Source: Candidatus Poribacteria bacterium
GTDB lineage: Bacteria > Poribacteria > WGA-4E > WGA-3G
Reading direction: 5' to 3'
Assembly: GCA_965214095.1 (NCBI GenBank)
Contig: OZ243938.1
Coordinates: 3,328,001-3,392,000 of the forward strand
DNA: 64,000 nt
In this document: positions 2,248 to 36,954 of the stretch, piece by piece
Layout: every line of letters begins with the position of its first letter
Numbering within the stretch: position 1 is the stretch's first letter
Translations under genes and position numbers: made by a program
The notes under the pieces: generated by a model
Databases searched by the model: none
The model's input: the letters and a program-made list of their open reading frames with translations, nothing else
What the model was told of the DNA's origin: nothing

Positions 2248-2982
2248 ATGAAAACCAACATTCTTTATATTATCAGTCTGTTACTGTTGTGTGTTAGTTG
2301 TAATGTTGAACAGAAACAACAACTGAGTTATGTGGAAGGTAGTGGTGGTCATGAATATCGAATGCATGAGATCCGTATACCAGAAAATTGGAAAATAGTG
2401 GATGCAGAACTTGATTTCAGACAGTTAAACTTAGAGTTTGATAGAGGTAATGGTATTGAAAAACAGAGTTTAAAATATCCATACAGAGCTTCTGACATCA
2501 TTGATGACTACTATGAGTTTTTTAAATTCAGAGGGGCAAATAGGTTAGCTGGACGAACTTTATTACATTTTTCCACAGATGAAGATCCGCAAAGCGAGTT
2601 TAACCCTCCTATTGGAACATCCAAGATTTCGTCAGGCATAAAAGAACGTGAAGAATTTGCCATCTATCGGACAAGTAGATTGCTTGTAATCCATTTCTCA
2701 ATTAAGAATACGGCTCTCGGTAATTTGACTTCTCACGACCTTACAAAACGTTACGCAAAAGGACCACATAATAGAGGAGAAACGGCTTATTTTGAAATCA
2801 TTGATGGTAAAATGCATTATAATATAGTGCTTAATAATAAAGAAACCCGAAGCTTTCTCATTGATGATTATTATAAGAATGAAACTTATAACGGTAGTGG
2901 AGAAAGCAATAGTATAAGCAATAATGAGGTAAGTTGGACTTGGAGTTATAGGATTACCTCTAAACATGAAATGGATAGGTAA
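2248..2982 (+). CDS. Uncharacterised lipoprotein, paralog 2
   Basis: Lipobox CVSC. WKIVDAELD...FDRGNGIEK...GANRLAG...LHFS is shared with paralog 3. Confidence 0.8.
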   Translation: MKTNILYIISLLLLCVSCNVEQKQQLSYVEGSGGHEYRMHEIRIPENWKIVDAELDFRQLNLEFDRGNGIEKQSLKYPYRASDIIDDYYEFFKFRGANRLAGRTLLHFSTDEDPQSEFNPPIGTSKISSGIKEREEFAIYRTSRLLVIHFSIKNTALGNLTSHDLTKRYAKGPHNRGETAYFEIIDGKMHYNIVLNNKETRSFLIDDYYKNETYNGSGESNSISNNEVSWTWSYRITSKHEMDR

Positions 2983-2995
2983 GTATAAAATCAAT

Positions 2996-3036
2996 TCAGA
3001 TCGTTGAGTTAATGTTTGCGGTGTATATGCGGAGAA
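2996..3036 (+). repeat. 41-bp junction repeat, copy 2
   Basis: tcagatcgttgagttaatgtttgcggtgtatatgcggagaa, matching 2200-2240. Confidence 0.8.
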
Positions 3037-3043
3037 CCGACAA

Positions 3044-3811
3044 ATGAAAACTTGGATAGTTTATATAATCAGTTTCTTATTACTGTGTAGTAGTTGCCAG
3101 ATGGAACAACGGAGCCTGATGGAACAAAAGTCACGTGACTTTTTTGAACAAGAACCGCGTATTATATCCATAGGTAGTGATGGATGGAGTACGTTTCAGA
3201 TAGTCATGCCGGTTCATTGGAAAATAGATGATGCTCAACTTAATTTAAACCCAATGAATCAAGAATTTGATTTACACTTAGCGTTTGATAGAGGTAGAGG
3301 TATAGAAAAACATAGTTTACCGGTTGATTTTCTGTCTAATGATTATGCCGAAGATATTCAATTCAGTGGTGCAAACAGAATTGATGGGTTGGCATTCTTG
3401 CACTTTAGTAAAAAAGATCCTCAGACTATGGCAAAACCTCCGTTGGGTATATCCAGAATTAATAAAGAAGCAAAATTCCATGAGATCATACTTGCTTATC
3501 GAAGCGGCAATCAACTTAAGGTGCTTTTTTTAGCCGAGAATACCTCGTTTGGTAATCTTCAATCTCACGATCTTCACCATTACTATTTTGGAGAAACTGA
3601 GATTAAAGACTATGCTAAGTATACATTAGAACTCAATAATGGTGAATTACAATTTAATTTTGGAAATAACTCCAAAGGCAACCGAAATTTTCCCATTCAT
3701 AAGTTGGTAAATCGGTATGAAGAATTTGGTCCTGGCGGCGAAGGGGCTGCTATGGGTTCAGTTAGGTTGCAGGTGACGGCGCGCTATGAATTAGTTTCTA
3801 AAGATAAATAA
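3044..3811 (+). CDS. Uncharacterised lipoprotein, paralog 3
   Basis: Lipobox CSSC. WKIDDAQLN...FDRGRGIEK...GANRIDG...LHFS...NTSFGNLQSHDL. Confidence 0.8.
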   Translation: MKTWIVYIISFLLLCSSCQMEQRSLMEQKSRDFFEQEPRIISIGSDGWSTFQIVMPVHWKIDDAQLNLNPMNQEFDLHLAFDRGRGIEKHSLPVDFLSNDYAEDIQFSGANRIDGLAFLHFSKKDPQTMAKPPLGISRINKEAKFHEIILAYRSGNQLKVLFLAENTSFGNLQSHDLHHYYFGETEIKDYAKYTLELNNGELQFNFGNNSKGNRNFPIHKLVNRYEEFGPGGEGAAMGSVRLQVTARYELVSKDK

Positions 3812-3865
3812 AATCAGAGAAATACAACTAACCGTTTTGCGAACCGATGGAGGACTGAAAGTACA

Positions 3866-4369
3866 TTGCAAATCTCAATGATTGCTGCGATAGATAAGAA
3901 TAGACTCATTGGCAATGGTCCAAACATCCCTTGGAAACTGCCTGCTGATCTCAAACACTTTCGTGAGATGACAATTGGCAAACCTGTCGTCATGGGACGC
4001 AAAACCTTTGAAACACTTCCACGTCCGTTGGCAAAGCGAAAGAATATCATCCTCACCCGCAATCAGAACTACACTGCCCCGAAAGGTTGTATAGTTACTC
4101 ACTCTGTAGAGGAAATCATTACAACTGTCAGCGAAATCTATGTCGACGTGACAACGGAACTTATGATTTGTGGTGGAGCGCCAATTTACGCAGCCTTTTT
4201 ATCACATTCTACCCGACTTTATCTCACACAGGTTCATGCTACGTTTGAAGGGGATGTCTATTTTCCTGAATTTGATTGGAATGCGTGGGATGAAGTGAAA
4301 CGGATTGACTGTGATGCGGATGAGAAGAATCCTTATCCTTACAGTTTTTTGGTTTTAGATAAGAAATAG
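3866..4369 (+). CDS. folA: Dihydrofolate reductase
   Basis: IPWKLPADLKHFR, VVMGRKTFETL, RKNIILTR, ICGGAPIY, EGDVYFP. TTG start with ggagg RBS. Confidence 0.97.
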   Translation: MQISMIAAIDKNRLIGNGPNIPWKLPADLKHFREMTIGKPVVMGRKTFETLPRPLAKRKNIILTRNQNYTAPKGCIVTHSVEEIITTVSEIYVDVTTELMICGGAPIYAAFLSHSTRLYLTQVHATFEGDVYFPEFDWNAWDEVKRIDCDADEKNPYPYSFLVLDKK

Positions 4370-4386
4370 AATAGTGGAGTGAATTA

Positions 4387-5019
4387 GTGCTTAATTTATG
4401 TATGCTTTCTGGTTCTTTTGAATATGACTCAGAAACATCTTTGACTATTTTCAAAAAGTATGTTGAGAAAAACTACCCCATCCAAGCCAATATGATTGCC
4501 TATGAATCAGAAGATGATGACCCATCTTTAGCTGCGATAGATGATGCAGATGCTCTGTTAGTCTTTACGCGGCGGCTCAATACAGATGGAGATTCACTTG
4601 CGAAATTTCAGGCATATTGTGAGACAGGCAAGCCACTCGTTGGTGTGCGAACTGCAAGCCACGCATATCAGAATTGGTTGGATTTTGATAAAGAGGTATT
4701 GGGAGGGGACTATCAAGGTCATTATGGTCACGGTCCCACTGTTCAGTTAGAAACGTTAGCACCAGAACATCCAATCCTGAAAGATATACCCAAATTTGAA
4801 AGTTATGGGAGTCTATATAGGAATCCTTCAATTAGTAATGATGCATCTGTGCTTCAGATGGGACACACGGATGAACATACGGAACCTGTTGCTTGGACGC
4901 GTTTGCACAATGGTGGACGTATCTGCTATACTTCGTTAGGACATCAGAAGGATTTTGAATTAGATGCGTTTTTGCAGTTTCTGGTACAGAGTGTTCTTTG
5001 GGTGACAGAAGAGATATAG
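4387..5019 (+). CDS. ThuA-like (class I glutamine amidotransferase-like fold) protein
   Basis: GVRTASHA, LGGDYQGH, EPVAWTR, GRICYTSLGH. Confidence 0.8.
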   Translation: MLNLCMLSGSFEYDSETSLTIFKKYVEKNYPIQANMIAYESEDDDPSLAAIDDADALLVFTRRLNTDGDSLAKFQAYCETGKPLVGVRTASHAYQNWLDFDKEVLGGDYQGHYGHGPTVQLETLAPEHPILKDIPKFESYGSLYRNPSISNDASVLQMGHTDEHTEPVAWTRLHNGGRICYTSLGHQKDFELDAFLQFLVQSVLWVTEEI

Positions 5020-5077
5020 GAAGATTTAATTTAAGGATTTTTTATACCTCTGTGTTTTGCAGGGGTATTTTTTAGAT

Positions 5078-6304
5078 ATGGAAACACTTGCGATAACGAA
5101 TGGCGACATCTATACCCCGACACATTACGGTCACGGTAATCTCGTCATTCAAGGCGATAAAATATCAGCAATTACTAAAGAGCAATTACCTCCATCCGAT
5201 GAGGTGATTGATGCATCTGGTTGCCTTGTCATTCCTGGATTGATTGATGGATTGATTCACGGCGGTGGTGGTTGTGATAGCATGACCGGAAAAGTTGAAG
5301 ATATTGAGACAATTGCACGCGCACATGCATCAGATGGTGTGACTTCTTTGGTGGTAGGTATATCTTCTGGGAGTATGGAGCATATAAACGCATCTTTAGA
5401 GGCAATTGCACAAGTTGCTGATGAACCCGTGTCAGATGGATCTAGGATTATAGGGTCGTATGTTGAGGGGAAATTCGGTAGTCTTGCCAAGAATGGCGCA
5501 CAGAATGCGAAATACATTACACCTCCGAACTTTGAAGAATTTCACGCAATGTGGGCAGCCTCTGATGGTACATTAAAGGTAATTTCTGTCGCACCAGAAA
5601 ACGATGAAAATTTTCAGTTTATCAAACATCTTGCTGAATTTAGGACAGATGCTTATAATAACATTGTTATAGCGATGGGACATACAAACGCTTCTTATCA
5701 GCAAGCGATGGATGCAATTGACGCGGGTGTTACACGTGCAACACATACCTACAACGGCATGAGCGGTATGCACCACCGTGATCTCGGTGCACTTGAGGCA
5801 GTTTTAGATCATCCAAACATACACGCGGAATTGATTGTTGACGAACACCACGTAAATCCTTTCTGGGGTAAACATCTGATAGAAGCAAAAGGTGTTTCAG
5901 GTGTAGGATTGATTACGGATTGCACCGAACATGCGGGTCTTTCTACTGAAGAATGGCAGAAGGATGCCGTATATGAAGCAGCACATGACGCGTTTCAGCT
6001 TAAGGATATGGTTGATACGGATACCTATAAATATATAAAAGATGGTGCAATGTGGTTGGATGTTGGCAAACCGACTGAACGGCTCGCGGGAGCAATCATC
6101 ACATTGATGGATGGTGTCCGTAATGTTGTGAAGTGGGGATTTTCATTGGAAGATGCGTTGACGATGGCGACATTAACACCTGCACAGAATTTAGGTGTAG
6201 AGGATCGCGTGGGTTCAATTGCCCCTGATAAGGCTGCAGATATAGTTATTGTTGATGACAGTTTAAATGTGCAAAAGGTGGTTTTGCGTGGGAAAGTGAT
6301 ATAA
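5078..6304 (+). CDS. nagA: N-acetylglucosamine-6-phosphate deacetylase-like amidohydrolase
   Basis: PGLID-x-IHGGGG, VAPE, GHTNA, THTYNGM, ITD, LAG, PAQNLG, ADIVIVD. Divergent at HLEGPF (here YVEGKF). ATG start chosen at 5078. Confidence 0.8.
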   Translation: METLAITNGDIYTPTHYGHGNLVIQGDKISAITKEQLPPSDEVIDASGCLVIPGLIDGLIHGGGGCDSMTGKVEDIETIARAHASDGVTSLVVGISSGSMEHINASLEAIAQVADEPVSDGSRIIGSYVEGKFGSLAKNGAQNAKYITPPNFEEFHAMWAASDGTLKVISVAPENDENFQFIKHLAEFRTDAYNNIVIAMGHTNASYQQAMDAIDAGVTRATHTYNGMSGMHHRDLGALEAVLDHPNIHAELIVDEHHVNPFWGKHLIEAKGVSGVGLITDCTEHAGLSTEEWQKDAVYEAAHDAFQLKDMVDTDTYKYIKDGAMWLDVGKPTERLAGAIITLMDGVRNVVKWGFSLEDALTMATLTPAQNLGVEDRVGSIAPDKAADIVIVDDSLNVQKVVLRGKVI

Positions 6305-6495
6305 TGAATTACTAAACTAATGGGATATTGTCTATCAGAAATAGTATGGGAACAAATTGATTTTCAGTCAGTTTTTTCTGGTATATCCCAATTTAGAAAA
6401 AGTGATCCGTATTTCCTGATTTCGGTGTAAATTGCAAGAAATTTAGCAATTTTACAATAAATCTATAATAATTCGGACATTTTTCTGAATTAAAC

Positions 6496-30812: not shown

Positions 30813-33800
30813 ATGATTGAGGTTAATATTTTGGAATTTGTTCATCTACACAATCACAGTGAATATAGCATGCTTGATAGTGCGTGTCGTATACCCGATA
30901 TGATTCAGTGGACAGTTGAGAATAGTGCGCCGGCTGTTGCCCTCACCGACCATGGTAATATGTTCGGTGCATGGGATTTTTACACAACTGCAAAACAGGC
31001 TGGGATCAACCCTATTGTCGGGTGTGAGGTGTATGTTGCTCCAAGACACCGAAAAAAACAGCCGAAGAATCCAAAGAATTTATACCATCTAACATTGCTT
31101 GCCGAAGATGTGTCAGGCTATCACAATCTGATAAAGTTGGTATCTCTTGGTTACATTGAGGGTTTCTGTGAGAAGCCGTGTATTGATTTGGAAATGTTGC
31201 GTGAGCACCGGGACGGCATTATTGCTCTGACGGGTTGTATTCAGGGACAAATACCACAACTCCTCTGTTCAAATAGACAGATGGCAGCTGCTCAGCATTT
31301 TAAGACGTTTGTTGATATTATGTCTCCGCGGAATATTTACGTTGAGATCCAGAATCATTATACGGATAAGGAACTGAAAACATATCCGATGCTGGTTGAT
31401 TTAGCGCGCGAATTTGAAATACCGCTCGTTGCGACGAACAATTGCCATTACTTATCTAAATCCGACTACCGTATATGGCAAATACTTCTTTGTATCCAAA
31501 AAAAGAAAAGCATCAATGCTCCCGATAGGATACGGCGTGGGAATCACTATTATTTTAAAAGTAGAGATGAAATGCAAGTTGCATTCAGGAATTACCCGCC
31601 TGAAGCGATCAGCAACACTCTTCAAATTGCCCAAAGGTGTCAGCTGAATCTGGATTACGGCAAGAGTGTGATGCCGAATTACGAGGTGCCTGATGGATAC
31701 ACTGATGACAGCTACCTCAAGGAGTTGTGCTACAAAGGGTTGCAAGAGAAGATGGGTGGAGAACTCACATCAGCTGTGCGAACGCGTTTGGATTATGAGC
31801 TTGAAACAATTCGCAAAACAGGATATGCCGGTTATTTTTTGATTGTGTGGGACTACATTGACTACGCAAACAAACAAGGATACCCACTTTCCACAAGGGG
31901 ATCCGCTGCAAGCAGCCTTGCCCTTTACGCACTCGGTGTAAATTCTTTCAATCCAATGGACCACGGTTGCATGTTTGAAAGGTTTTTGAACACTGAGCGA
32001 ATTAGTCCGCCTGATATTGATATAGATTTTGCTGATCGCATTCGGGACGATGTTATTAATTATCTTGTCAAAAAATATGGTCATGACTCTGTGGGTAAAG
32101 TTGCGACCTTTTCAACGATGGGTGCAAAGGTTGCTATCACGGATGTCGGGAAAGTTTTAGATATACCGATAGAAAACCTGAAAAAGTTGACAAGATTGGT
32201 GAATCACCTGCCTGAACTTACCGTTCAGAATATTGTAAGACATGCCCCCAGTTTTAAGAAGTTAGTGAAATGTCCTGAATATAAAGAATTAATAGCCGTC
32301 AGTAGAGAACTTGTGGGATTGAAAAGGCATGTATCGTCACACGCTTCTGCCATCGTTGTTTCAAATGGGTCGCTTAGCAATTATATGCCACTCTTTACAG
32401 ATAAACATGGTCAAGTTGTGACACAGTTTGAAGGTAAAACTGTTGAAGATGTTGGCATCGTCAAATTTGATTCACTCGGTTTGAGAAGCCTGACAAAGAC
32501 CGATGATTGTGTGAAAATGGTTAAATCCAACAGAGGTAAGGCAATAAAATTAGAAGATATTCCTTTTGATGATGCACAGACCTATCAACTCGTTGGTAAA
32601 GGTTTAATCTCCGGTTTGTTCCAACTGGAAACTTCCGATGGTATGCGGCGGCTTGTAACAGAACTGAAAGCAGAGACCTTTCAGGATTTCTGTGCAATTG
32701 CTGCAATTTACCGTCCCGGCCCGCTGCTCAGCGGTACAACGCAGCGATTTATCAACCGTAAAAATGGAAGGGAACAGGTTAAATCTGTACACCCGCTGCT
32801 TAAGGAAACACTAAAAGACACGTACGGATTGTGTATTTACCAAGAACATGTGATGCAGATTGCCCGTGATATTGCGGGGTACACGCTCGGTGAAGCGGAT
32901 GTTCTACGATATGCCATGGGACGCGTGAATAAACAACTTTTGAAAGATCAACGACAGAAGTTTCTTTCAGGTGCAATAAAGAACGGCATTTCCGATAAAG
33001 AGGCTGAAACTATCTTTGACATGATAGAACCCTTTGGTGGATACGCCTTCAATAAATCACACTCTGTTGCTTATGCTATAGTTACTTATAGGATGGCATA
33101 TCTAAAGGCGCATTACCCGCACGAATTTATGGCGGCGATTATGACAAGTGAGGCTGATTATACTCCCAGACTTATCGGCTATCGTGACGAATGTAGACAT
33201 TTGGCAAGGCATTTGGGTGTAGATATTAATTTACTTCCGCCAGACATCAATGTCAGTGATAAGTATTTTACGGTAAATGGCAATGCTATAAACTTCGGAC
33301 TCATTGTTATCAAAAATGTTGGTGGAAAAGCGATAGATGCGATCATAGCAGAACGAGAGGCAGGAGGCGTGTTCAGATCGCTACAAGATTTTTGCGAACG
33401 CGTGGATACGAGAGTTGTTAATATACGTGTAATTGAGAGTCTTATCTTATGTGGAGCTTTTGATCGCATTGATGCACATAGAGCAAAACTGGTCGCTAAC
33501 TTAGAAAAGATCATCAAAGTTTCCAGAGCAGTGAGAGCGTCACTGGCACGCGGGCAGCTAAGCCTCTTTCAGATAGACATTCCGCTTACGGATACGCCTG
33601 AATATGAACCGTTGGAACGATTCAAATATGAAAAGGATCTTCTCGGTTTTTATGTATCAGGTCACCCACTGACTGAATATGAGGACATTATCAAATACTT
33701 TACAACTGCCAATTCTCAAACGGTTCACGAACATAAACTTGATTCTATAGTGTCTATAGTTGGGATGGTAAAGAGCGGGAGAGTGAAGCACACAAAATCA

Positions 33801-34094
33801 AGTGGCACAACACTTCAACTTAAGATAGAAGACCTTGAAGGGTATGTAGAGGTATTTGCGCGTCAAGAGGTATTAGAAAAAGGGATGTCGGTTGAGAAGG
33901 GACAATTTGTTTGGATTGAGGGCAAAATCAGAAATATGCCGCGTGGTAGTAAGGGCAAAACAACAACAGAAAAACGGATATACGCAAGTAGGATTATGGA
34001 TATCACTGCTGTTACCGAGAATTTGACATCTGCGGTAGAGGTGAAAATAGCGGAGTCTGACATCAACAACCTGCAGAAACTGAAGGTTGAGTAA
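30813..34094 (+). CDS. dnaE: DNA polymerase III alpha subunit (divergent), C-terminally truncated by an IS607 insertion
   Basis: PHP HLHNHSEYS, ALTDHG; RGSAA; PDIDIDF; KFD; YAFNKSHS; clamp motif QLSLF; OB fold. The final VE and stop come from the IS. Confidence 0.95.
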   Translation: MIEVNILEFVHLHNHSEYSMLDSACRIPDMIQWTVENSAPAVALTDHGNMFGAWDFYTTAKQAGINPIVGCEVYVAPRHRKKQPKNPKNLYHLTLLAEDVSGYHNLIKLVSLGYIEGFCEKPCIDLEMLREHRDGIIALTGCIQGQIPQLLCSNRQMAAAQHFKTFVDIMSPRNIYVEIQNHYTDKELKTYPMLVDLAREFEIPLVATNNCHYLSKSDYRIWQILLCIQKKKSINAPDRIRRGNHYYFKSRDEMQVAFRNYPPEAISNTLQIAQRCQLNLDYGKSVMPNYEVPDGYTDDSYLKELCYKGLQEKMGGELTSAVRTRLDYELETIRKTGYAGYFLIVWDYIDYANKQGYPLSTRGSAASSLALYALGVNSFNPMDHGCMFERFLNTERISPPDIDIDFADRIRDDVINYLVKKYGHDSVGKVATFSTMGAKVAITDVGKVLDIPIENLKKLTRLVNHLPELTVQNIVRHAPSFKKLVKCPEYKELIAVSRELVGLKRHVSSHASAIVVSNGSLSNYMPLFTDKHGQVVTQFEGKTVEDVGIVKFDSLGLRSLTKTDDCVKMVKSNRGKAIKLEDIPFDDAQTYQLVGKGLISGLFQLETSDGMRRLVTELKAETFQDFCAIAAIYRPGPLLSGTTQRFINRKNGREQVKSVHPLLKETLKDTYGLCIYQEHVMQIARDIAGYTLGEADVLRYAMGRVNKQLLKDQRQKFLSGAIKNGISDKEAETIFDMIEPFGGYAFNKSHSVAYAIVTYRMAYLKAHYPHEFMAAIMTSEADYTPRLIGYRDECRHLARHLGVDINLLPPDINVSDKYFTVNGNAINFGLIVIKNVGGKAIDAIIAEREAGGVFRSLQDFCERVDTRVVNIRVIESLILCGAFDRIDAHRAKLVANLEKIIKVSRAVRASLARGQLSLFQIDIPLTDTPEYEPLERFKYEKDLLGFYVSGHPLTEYEDIIKYFTTANSQTVHEHKLDSIVSIVGMVKSGRVKHTKSSGTTLQLKIEDLEGYVEVFARQEVLEKGMSVEKGQFVWIEGKIRNMPRGSKGKTTTEKRIYASRIMDITAVTENLTSAVEVKIAESDINNLQKLKVE

Positions 34095-34153
34095 CAGTAT
34101 CTAAATATCTATATTTTTCTTGATATTTCTCTGGATTTATAGTATACTATTAT

Positions 34154-34741
34154 ATGGCTTATGTATCAGCACGTAAAGCAAGTGAACTGCTGGATTATAC
34201 CCCCGACCATTTAAGGAAGTTGGCAAATGAAGGAAAGATTGAATATATCCGCACAGGAGGCGGACACAGACGCTATGATGTTGAAGGATACATCAAAAGC
34301 AAATCCCAATCAATTGCAACTGTTTGCTACTGCAGAGTATCCAGCACGAAGCAAAGAGATGATCTTGAACGACAAGTTGAATATATGCGAAGCATCTACC
34401 CCTCAGCAGAAGTTATCAGAGACATCGGAAGTGGTATCAACTTCAAAAGGAAAGGGCTTAGAACCTTATTGGAACGGCTTATGCAAGGTGATAAGCTCCA
34501 AGTTGTTATTGCCCATCGGGATAGGCTCGCCCGATTCGGTATCGACCTTATACAATACCTCATTGAACAAAACGGTGGCGAACTCGTGGTTCTCGATCAA
34601 ACAGAACACAGTCCGCAAGAAGAACTCACTGCGGATCTTCTCGCAATCCTGCATGTCTTCAGTAGCCGGATGCACGGGCTCCGAAGTTACCGTGACAAAA
34701 TCAAAGAAGATAAGAGTTTATCCGACAACAGAACAACGTGA
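34154..34741 (+). CDS. tnpA: IS607 serine-recombinase transposase TnpA
   Basis: N-terminal MerR-like HTH (RTGGGHRRY), YCRVSS, DLERQ, DIGSGINFKRKGL, HRDRLARFG. Confidence 0.96.
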   Translation: MAYVSARKASELLDYTPDHLRKLANEGKIEYIRTGGGHRRYDVEGYIKSKSQSIATVCYCRVSSTKQRDDLERQVEYMRSIYPSAEVIRDIGSGINFKRKGLRTLLERLMQGDKLQVVIAHRDRLARFGIDLIQYLIEQNGGELVVLDQTEHSPQEELTADLLAILHVFSSRMHGLRSYRDKIKEDKSLSDNRTT

Positions 34742-35809
34742 AACACTGCGTCAGTGGTTTGGCACAGCACGTTTTACCTACAACAAAACGGTTGTTTTGT
34801 TGAACGAAACAGACACAAAGGCACATTGGAAAGCGATAAAAACAGGCATTCTTCACGATCTACCTGATTGGAGCAAAGAAACGCCGTATCAGATAAAGTC
34901 TATTGCTATCCGTGATGCTTGTATTGCTGTTAGAGAAGCGAAGCAAAAATGTCAAAAAACAGGTAAGTTTCAATCTGTGTCTTTCAAATCTAAACGGCAT
35001 CCCTCAGATAGTATTTTCATGCCAAAATCTGCTATAAAACCACGCGGTGTCTATCACACCTTACTTGGTGATCTAAAGATGTCAGAAATGTTGCCTGATA
35101 ATATCTCTGACTCCCGACTTGTGAAAAAGAATGACAAATACTATTTATGTGTATCTTATACTGTGACAACTCCGAAGCGAAAGCCAAACGGACGTGTTGT
35201 TGCTTTAGACCCTGGCGTGAGAACATTCCTCACATATTTTCATGAGCGTGGTTTCGGATGGCTTGGACACCATGCTATTAATCGGATTCAAAGACTTTGT
35301 TCATATCTCGATGACCTATTATCTCGTGCAGCTAAAGCAGGTAGACAATCACGCAAGAATATGAGACGTGCTGCAAACAGAATACGCACACGTATAAAAA
35401 ATCTTGTAGATGAATTGCATCATAAAGTCGCACGATACCTTGTGGATACCTTTGATATTATCTTACTCCCAACGTTTGAGACTTCAGATATGGTAATGCG
35501 TGGAAAACGAAAACTACGAAAGAGGTCTGTCCGACAAATGTTGACACTCTCTCACTACAGATTCAAACAGTTCCTAAAACATAAAGCGAAAGAAACTGGA
35601 TCTATCGTCGTTGATGTCTGTGAAGCATACACATCAAAACAGTTTCTTGGAATGGTGAGATGAGAAAATCACTCGGCGGACGCAAGATAATCAAAGATAG
35701 CATAGGACGCAAGATGAACAGAGACTTGAATGGCGCACGTGGGATATTCCTGCGTGCTTTGGTAGATGAACCCTGGTTACTCTCTATGAGTAACTTGCAA
35801 ACCGTATAA
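34227..35809 (+). pseudogene. tnpB: IS607 TnpB RNA-guided nuclease (Fanzor2-like), frameshifted near 35636-35639
   Basis: KIRVYPT, ARFTYN, ALDPGVRTF, DELHHK, CEAYTSK. RuvC-III (MNRDLNGARGIFLR) lies in the -1 frame and ends at TAA 35807-35809. The true start is uncertain. Confidence 0.88.
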
Positions 35810-35858
35810 GATGTGAAATACATAGTATCGCACGGATATATACAGGTTAATATCATCG

Positions 35859-36068
35859 GCTTTACAGGATATTGCACTTACTAACAGTGGGGACCTCCAT
35901 TTAATCCTGCGACTCGCGAGTCCGCGTTATGGTGATGTGATTGTACGGTGTGGTATGGCATATAAGATCGCTAATGATGATACTGTTTTTAAACAGGTGA
36001 ACAAACTGTTTGGAGAGAATAGCATTAAACGTAGCAATCGCACGCAACGTTTTAGGCGGAATCCGTAG
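35859..36068 (+). pseudogene. dnaE: Detached C-terminal 69 codons of dnaE
   Basis: Translates ALQDIALTNSGDLHLILRLASPRYGDVIVRCG...FKQVNKLFGENSIK...NP*. It is in frame with upstream dnaE after IS excision and resembles the alpha-subunit C-terminal domain. Confidence 0.85.
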
Positions 36069-36243
36069 GTGTTGTCTGAACCAGGATTTTCAGGATTAGA
36101 GTTTGGTTCTGTGAAGTCCCTATCTAAAACTCGACCACTATCTTTTGAATGACATTTATAATACCATTATAACCCTGCTCTATCCACAGGGTTATTTAGT
36201 TTTAATAATTTTCAATCGATGAACGTTACTAAGAGTTTATATC

Positions 36244-36320
36244 GTAGGTCGGGTAGAGCGTTAGCGAAACCCGACACGTTCAATGCTTGTCGGGTTTCGC
36301 TAACGCTCTACCCGACCTAC
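36244..36320. repeat. GTAG-REP doublet (REPIN-like)
   Basis: gtaggtcgggtagagcgttagcgaaacccgac plus its perfect inverted copy. A related doublet lies at 52893-52973. Confidence 0.85.
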
Positions 36321-36486
36321 AGGTGTTATATTGAAATGTGAAAAATATAGCAGAAAAACTTAAAACTACATAACACTGTCTCTATCCAGAATCTCTTTCT
36401 ATACAAGTTTGAATTGTGATATAATAGTTTTAGAATATAGACAATCTATTGATGATACCTTGTAAAAGCAATGAAGGAGCATTCGG

Positions 36487-36954
36487 ATGTCAAATGAAGG
36501 AAGACGTTCTTTTTTACAAATCGCATCGGCTTTCATCGGTGGGTTAATTGGCTTAGCTGCCGGTATTCCACTGATCGGATTTGCAATCTCACCTGCGTGG
36601 AAAAAAGAAGAATCGCAGTGGGTTGACCTCGGTTTGGTAGACCGTCTAAAAAACAGCCGCTTCAAAAAAGTAAATTATACTTTCACAGCAAAAGATGGTT
36701 GGGTGAAAGCAACGAAAAAACGTTCTGTCTATGTGACGGATGTTGGTAATGGGGAGTGGGATGTCTTTTCACGGACGTGTTCACATCTCGGTTGCCTTGT
36801 CCGATGGAACGAGAGCCAAGAAGCCTTCCTCTGCCCGTGTCACGGTGCGGTGTTTGATAAGGACGGAGCTGTTGTTGCAGGTCCACCACCAAAACCTTTG
36901 CAAAAACTTGAGGTCAAAGTAGAAGCCGGCGTTTTATATGTAAAGGAGGCGTAA
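36487..36954 (+). CDS. qcrA: Rieske iron-sulfur subunit of a quinol:cytochrome c reductase
   Basis: Tat motif RRSFL, CSHLGC, CPCHG, GPPPKPL. Confidence 0.93.
   Translation: MSNEGRRSFLQIASAFIGGLIGLAAGIPLIGFAISPAWKKEESQWVDLGLVDRLKNSRFKKVNYTFTAKDGWVKATKKRSVYVTDVGNGEWDVFSRTCSHLGCLVRWNESQEAFLCPCHGAVFDKDGAVVAGPPPKPLQKLEVKVEAGVLYVKEA

Follow-up and report, generated by a model that had tools for sequence, protein, structure and literature searches.

The window analyzed here, a stretch of 64,000 nucleotides from contig OZ243938.1 of a Candidatus Poribacteria bacterium, contains a gene for a DNA polymerase III alpha subunit (dnaE) that is interrupted by a 1773 bp insertion sequence (IS) of the IS607 family. 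The genome, G000, is a metagenome-assembled genome (MAG) of 5.25 Mb in 4 contigs. The element occupies positions 34087-35859 on the forward strand, in the same orientation as dnaE; five full copies are present in the genome, and the corresponding empty site is found at locus L031 of a sister MAG. A first-pass annotation made from the letters alone had proposed that the element splits dnaE at a GG dinucleotide without duplication, that its exact removal restores a full-length polymerase, and that the transposase could toggle the polymerase between replisome-tethered and untethered forms, with a neutral insertion as fallback. The first proposal is correct to the base and the second is borne out by a natural allele, and of the remaining two the fallback is the better reading. 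The annotation missed a second, intact dnaE in the same chromosome. The interrupted gene is an accessory dnaE paralogue, and we consider it likely that the insertion is lineage-specific and tolerated.

The N-terminal piece of the gene (30813-34086, forward strand) comprises 1091 codons and the first base of a split codon. As read, the open reading frame (ORF) extends to 34094 and counts 1093 codons, with the final valine and glutamate and the TAA stop (GTT GAG TAA) contributed by the element. The left junction (...ctgaagG/ttgagtaa...) is located at 34086/34087, the right junction (...atcatcgg/ctttacaggat) at 35859/35860. Behind the right junction, a detached 3' remnant (35860-36068, forward strand) begins with the two missing bases of the split codon (g/ct). 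The frame 35862-36068 adds 68 codons followed by TAG, so that the earlier count of 69 uninterrupted codons after removal of the element holds. The N-terminal piece contains the Pfam domains PHP, DNA_pol3_alpha, DNA_pol3_finger, HHH_6, and OB, and scores 1171 bits against the NCBIfam profile NF004226 (DNA polymerase III alpha equivalog; cutoff 1002 bits), of which it covers positions 5-1089 of 1146. The remnant is 40-69% identical to the C-termini of orthologues.

Comparison with related genomes supplies the allele without the element. L031 is 94.5% identical to the window gene at the nucleotide level over 3.6 kb and is syntenic on both sides. It contains the empty site CTGAAGGCTTTACAG exactly as predicted by the first-pass annotation, reads uninterrupted through ...CAGAAACTGAAGGCTTTACAGGATATT..., and its ORF continues to a normal C-terminus. 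The two flanks in the window align to L031 at 2614-6271 and 6270-6468, and these matches overlap by exactly GG. Hence there is no target-site duplication: the window flanks and L031 share only this 2-bp GG, and no base has been gained or lost. On 11 of the 12 orthologue ORFs, the N- and C-terminal pieces also match neighboring positions, separated by a single residue that corresponds to the split codon, and the E-values for the C-terminal piece range from 5e-15 to 2e-28. The joined protein thus aligns with intact orthologues, as had been anticipated. The twelfth orthologue (L026:1498-4606, G007:C1) is a deleted copy. By these alignments the restored dnaE frame is not a chance effect, and orthologue alignment and natural empty site show independently of each other that the gene is cleanly split.

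Among 40 genomes of the genus (G000 included) a match across the left junction is found only in G000. The only close orthologue, which lies in G045 and is the same locus as L031, has a match over 1-487 that breaks off exactly at 34086. As a family, the element occurs in many of the 40 genomes. The sister genome carries the same two dnaE genes as G000, both intact, and three full copies of the IS at other sites.

The ends of the element are well defined by its other copies. A BLAST search of 34087-35859 against its own genome returned five full copies with 93-100% identity, and since every full copy matches exactly 1-1773, these boundaries are the true ends of the element. When the copies are aligned with their flanks, similarity begins at TTGAGTAACAG and ends at ATCATCGG. 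The presence of GG at both flanks leaves a two-base ambiguity, such that 34085-35857 is an equally valid assignment. Among 11 distinct left flanks from G000 and G031, 10 end in GG after purines (AAGG, AGGG, GAGG, GGGG) and the remaining one in AG. The right ends are uniformly TCGG (10 listed, from nine of ten elements, with L078 being a right-end fragment). The tips of the element show no inverted repeat; the nearest such pair, 34121-34140 with 35836-35855, lies subterminally and has 75% complementarity.

These features are those described for IS607 elements. One account characterizes the family by the absence of terminal inverted repeats and of target duplication, by GG at the termini and in the target, and by a tnpA gene that alone suffices for transposition (PMC6188088). 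Like IS607 from Helicobacter pylori and CboIStron from Clostridium botulinum, the element in dnaE encodes a serine recombinase TnpA with an N-terminal MerR-type helix-turn-helix followed downstream by tnpB, has neither terminal inverted repeats nor a target duplication, and carries a GG core at its ends and target. For a Clostridium IS607 element, a preprint gives TGGG as the transposon-adjacent motif (TAM), UCGG as the end of the guide-RNA scaffold, and GG as the core (bioRxiv 10.1101/2023.11.20.567912). The Poribacteria element shares the TCGG right end of CboIStron, and its left flanks are purine-rich before the GG, compared with the TGGG TAM given in that source. Judged from these sequence features, the element is a member of the IS607 family and a new IS607 element from Poribacteria. 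Unlike CboIStron it has no group I intron. We considered the possibility of an IStron that repairs the host mRNA by splicing and rejected it, because Rfam gave no group I intron for 33800-36500 at E <= 1; only 67 nt precede tnpA.

The tnpA gene (34154-34741, forward strand) is intact and encodes a serine recombinase transposase of 195 residues with a MerR/HTH_17 domain at 5-42 and a Resolvase domain at 57-179. In addition to these Pfam matches, the protein scores 178.2 bits against NF033518 (IS607 family transposase; cutoff 110). By contrast with other copies of the element, the copy in dnaE contains a broken tnpB (34692-35809, forward strand), a gene of the RNA-guided endonuclease family. An A-run at 35636-35639 consists of four bases instead of five, such that the first frame stops at 35663 and the rest of the gene reads from 35624 to 35809. 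Contigs from public sequencing runs carry an extra A behind 35635. Given that this is a homopolymer difference in what appears to be a long-read assembly, the frameshift may be an assembly error. Three copies of the element in G000 encode an intact TnpB, and by another count the tnpB ORF is uninterrupted in four of the five copies. The protein from copy L002 (L002:2106-3224, P0004) has 372 residues, carries HTH_OrfB_IS605 and OrfB_IS605 together with a complete TNB domain, and scores 147.9 bits against NF040570 (cutoff 100).

The TnpB of this element keeps the RuvC-like D/E/D contexts but is free of cysteines at the usual zinc-finger positions of the TNB domain (TVSWNGE...KDSTGRK). In this respect the element differs from known IS607 elements, the canonical TNB zinc-finger pattern being CxxC. 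A promoter-like sequence, TTGATA-17-TATACT, is located in the region 34120-34153 and ends 5 nt before the ATG of tnpA. This match to the consensus suggests by its placement that the tnpA transcript may be nearly leaderless. At the left end of the element, each of the three forward frames meets a stop codon within 21 nt. In copy L003 (G000:C1:2759539-2761311), a C-run is one base shorter and tnpA is frameshifted; this homopolymer difference, too, may be an assembly error.

The right end of the element (35738-35859, forward strand) forms a structured region that ends in ...AUCGG and is a candidate omegaRNA scaffold. In a consensus fold computed from 16 copies, 39 pairs are predicted, eight of which persist where both bases have changed, and the fold is common to three mini-elements. 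It fits a guide-RNA scaffold, in which case the presumed guide would consist of the dnaE bases from 35860 onward. Within the genome a 20-nt guide of this kind matches its own site and one site with three mismatches, and no other. The same BLAST search that identified the full copies also returned solo ends (L006, L008) and a mini-derivative of about 277 bp. Such nonautonomous mini-elements were observed at G000:C1:3164014-3164290 (L007/L009) and at G031:C4:632487-632761 (L079/L080); what remains is 39 nt from the left end and about 106 nt from the right, the latter with the fold and its compensatory changes.

Population data were taken from Logan contigs of the public runs X1, X5, X6, and X7; such contigs lose rare variants. 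X1 is the run with the best share of the window, and the RNA runs X15-X20 cover small shares. Two X1 contigs, spanning 33300 to 34111 and 35830 to 36215, join unique dnaE sequence to either end of the element with zero differences and at a depth equal to that of the flanks (about 128). Their reach into the element is 25 letters on the left and 30 on the right, which is what a k-mer graph gives at the edge of a repeat. These contigs bear on the explanation that the element was mis-joined into dnaE at a repeat during assembly. Five near-identical copies in one genome are the kind of repeat at which assemblies fail, but the joints recur in the X1 contigs, the unique sequences on either side run collinear with a single gene of the sister genome, and the junction bears the GG signature of the family. 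We therefore regard an assembly artefact as extremely improbable.

What does the insertion remove from the polymerase? Against the E. coli alpha subunit (PDB 5fku), the interrupted protein aligns with residues 8-1081 to residues 5-1090 (E 3e-200), and the domain order is equal to that of this DnaE1. The C-terminal 210 residues of the sister protein align to E. coli residues 963-1155, although this match is weak (E 1.6e-5). It places the break at about R1100/L1101, consistent with the longer alignment, and the remnant encoded by 35860-36068 at about residues 1101-1155. In E. coli, the OB fold comprises residues 960-1071, the tau-binding domain those from 1079 to 1160, and the clamp motif residues 920-925 (PMC4703070). 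On this scale about 22 residues of the tau-binding domain are kept and about 60 of roughly 82 are lost. Thus, the product of the occupied allele contains no complete tau-binding domain, and the missing part is encoded, detached, at 35860-36068. The product does keep PDIDID at residue 400 and QLSLF at residue 915, which we take to be the catalytic aspartates and the clamp-binding consensus, respectively. The position of the latter near 915 compares with 920-925 in E. coli. In contrast to E. coli DnaE1, the protein is an accessory paralogue cut at about E. coli residue 1100. The first-pass claim that the occupied allele would encode a catalytically intact, clamp-binding polymerase lacking most of the tau-binding domain is upheld at the level of sequence by these motifs and by the position of the break. 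We infer that the truncated product would have lost tau tethering.

The interrupted gene is not the only dnaE of its chromosome. The second one, at C1:2647455-2650751, is intact, with an ORF of 1181 residues, a complete C-terminus, and a match to NF004226 over positions 3-1144 of 1146; it shares 61% identity with the interrupted gene. According to a search that covered 30 relatives, genomes of the genus contain between one and four dnaE-like genes. We computed a tree (FastTree, 42 rows) from all matches of at least about 880 residues in 18 genomes of the genus, together with the N-terminal piece from the window, its own core copy, the sister, six DnaE1 proteins from outside the family, and one DnaE2-like protein; the tree omits seven short fragments and all other rows from outside the family. 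It resolves three clades at the level of the genus. One clade of 18 rows, which we call the core clade, contains G000 and 17 of the 18 sampled genomes, the missing genome being 81% complete. A second, accessory clade consists of eight rows (Shimodaira-Hasegawa-like support 100) and contains the window gene, the sister gene, and members from five of the 18 other genomes. The window gene falls into the accessory clade and the second dnaE of the same genome into the core clade. With a second intact copy beside it and a clade that occurs in five of 18 genomes, the interrupted gene is not a single-copy core dnaE. Since it is not the sole dnaE of the cell, the replisome need not be affected by its interruption.

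From these observations a likely course of events can be drawn. After the lineage had split from its closest sampled relative, an IS607-family element would have moved into the accessory dnaE, at a GG in the 3' portion of the gene. The serine recombinase would exchange strands over the 2-bp GG core, and because of this mode of exchange no bases were gained or lost. The gene now ends two codons into the element, and its predicted product is a DnaE1-type polymerase that keeps all catalytic domains, the internal clamp motif, and the OB fold, but has lost roughly three quarters of its tau-binding domain. The intact, full-length core dnaE presumably does the replicative work, which would explain why the cell tolerates the insertion. 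On this account the core copy would carry replication and the insertion would be nearly neutral. The cell could do without the accessory clade, or the C-terminus of its members would at the least be plastic.

Other members of the accessory clade raise the question as to whether the truncation could be an adaptation. The accessory-clade ORFs G002:C15 (L056) and G012:C121 (L057) have 1090 residues, end before the tau-binding domain, and have a ratio of nonsynonymous to synonymous substitution rates (dN/dS) of 0.097, which indicates purifying selection. These natural forms would offer a precedent if the tau-less product in G000 were functional and favored, convergent with them, and the insertion kept by selection. 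The intact catalytic and clamp motifs would agree with such a function. Run X6, from another study, contains a contig that leads from the dnaE flank into the element by 26 nt and shows 10 differences over 356 nt. This is a hint that a somewhat diverged strain also has the occupied allele, which may have persisted across some strain divergence. On the other hand, this contig reaches fewer than 31 letters into the element, and the sister lineage retains the full-length form under constraint. The insertion also leaves a partial domain of about 22 residues, whereas the natural forms end near residue 1081 of G002:C14 with another tail. The case for adaptation is drawn from sequence, and we consider it unlikely. 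L038 likewise belongs to the natural short forms of the accessory clade, which have a different short tail. The accessory copy in G007 (L026) contains an internal deletion of approximately residues 983-1116 with a C-terminal remnant in another frame, which reflects either decay of this copy or a fault of the assembly.

We also considered relaxed constraint on the detached remnant. Its dN/dS of 0.37 (8 nonsynonymous and 6 synonymous changes) compares with 0.10 for the N-terminal piece (Fisher p 0.037). This difference is only a hint, because it comes from too few changes and the far end of the tail is variable in every clade, and we did not adopt it.

A reversible switch would require that TnpA excises and reinserts the element, so that the accessory polymerase alternates between a tau-tethered and an untethered form. 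TnpA is intact, and the frame of the remnant is still open. In a study on IS607 TnpA, the enzyme produced scarless donor joints and circles, with about 5% excision overnight upon overexpression in E. coli (bioRxiv 10.1101/2023.11.20.567912). Precise excision from dnaE is thus mechanistically possible. Neither ongoing excision nor its use as a switch is apparent from the contigs. The X1 contigs contain only occupied junctions, with no joint that skips the element and no circle junction. Joints that skip exactly 1773 bases do occur in two runs from other studies: in X7, on a contig of 2542 nt (depth 3.9) whose 785 nt of flank contain 32 differences, and in X5, where the depth is low. Over the flanks, these contigs are about 4% divergent from the window, and by this divergence they are the allele of a diverged relative like L031 and not excision products.

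The biology of the family speaks against repeated use of one site as well. Reinsertion at the same GG is not expected from a target preference of only (G)GG (PMC6188088). TnpB and its guide RNA are described as cutting the regenerated donor joint, after which recombination restores the element (bioRxiv 10.1101/2023.11.20.567912). By analogy, the TnpB and right-end RNA of the present family would be expected to counteract excision by reinstalling the element. The intact core dnaE, in addition, makes an effect at the level of the replisome doubtful. Of the toggling proposal in the first-pass annotation, the intact TnpA therefore stands, but neither an empty nor a circle junction is seen in the X1 contigs, and a second intact dnaE exists. 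All in all, we judge a switch to be very unlikely.

Reversible phase variation mediated by insertion sequences is a known concept, and there are classic cases of it. The locus in G000 resembles phase variation by precise excision in that the IS lies inside a coding region and exact removal restores the gene. It differs in that the occupied allele is found in G000 and the empty alleles in diverged relatives. A variant of the switch assigns function to the occupied allele itself: the clamp-bound, tau-independent accessory DnaE would be the working state, comparable to the accessory forms of sister species that lack the tau-binding domain by nature, and TnpA would occasionally restore the tethered form, amounting to a reversible switch at the level of a domain. 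We give this variant equally little credence.

Several points weigh against a tolerated insertion in an accessory paralogue and should be set beside it. The accessory gene has a dN/dS of 0.10 between G000 and the sister over 1091 codons, compared with 0.06 for the core gene of the same pair. The former value indicates purifying selection and therefore not a decaying gene, and the truncation may be costly or function-changing. The core copy is presumably the replicase, as judged from its distribution and from the tree. The completeness of G000 is 94.5%. The reach of the X1 contigs into the element is below the 31 letters taken as bridging, and X1 may be the sample from which the MAG was derived. 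Finally, rare empty alleles or ongoing excision are possible, and contigs are blind to them.

An IS607 insertion in a gene is, as such, routine. The value of this locus is that it provides a clean natural pair, an occupied site and the empty site in the sister, for scarless insertion at a GG core in an uncultured phylum. More interesting than the insertion is a genus with two to four DnaE1-type genes in each genome, natural tau-less forms, and a fusion of sigma factor, FtsZ, and DnaE. It raises the question as to what role spare replicative-type polymerases play in this genus of Poribacteria. In the literature on Poribacteria and dnaE, no title refers to an interrupted dnaE.

The fusion just mentioned forms a third dnaE clade of nine rows from nine relatives, not including G000. 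Its members consist of a single ORF of about 1427 residues in which extracytoplasmic function (ECF)-type sigma-70 regions r2/r4 (31-183) are followed by an FtsZ/tubulin GTPase with FtsZ_C (210-517) and by the PHP, polymerase, finger, and HhH domains of DnaE (551-1425). The protein stops after HhH, before the region of the clamp motif, the OB fold, and the tau domain. The nine members are located at L083:747-5030 (G017:C1), G002:C31, G012:C117, G013:C121, G014:C20, G006:C1:69009, G008:C47, G010:C41, and G004:C76. This sigma-FtsZ-DnaE architecture is unusual.

The interrupted gene resides in an ordinary housekeeping part of the chromosome, with secY-rpsD-rpoA-rplQ upstream and genes for a Rieske protein and cytochrome b downstream. 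This neighborhood shows no sign of a prophage or island and gives no pointer to the role of the paralogue. Just 3' of the dnaE stop, at 36187-36380, lies a palindromic repeat of about 190 bp that resembles a miniature inverted-repeat transposable element and occurs in at least 16 near-full copies in the genome. It shows very high contig depth in the public runs and below-threshold matches to microRNA families, which were all that Rfam gave for 33800-36500. A second short repeat is located at 36072-36100, and the sister genome differs across the intergenic stretch after dnaE.

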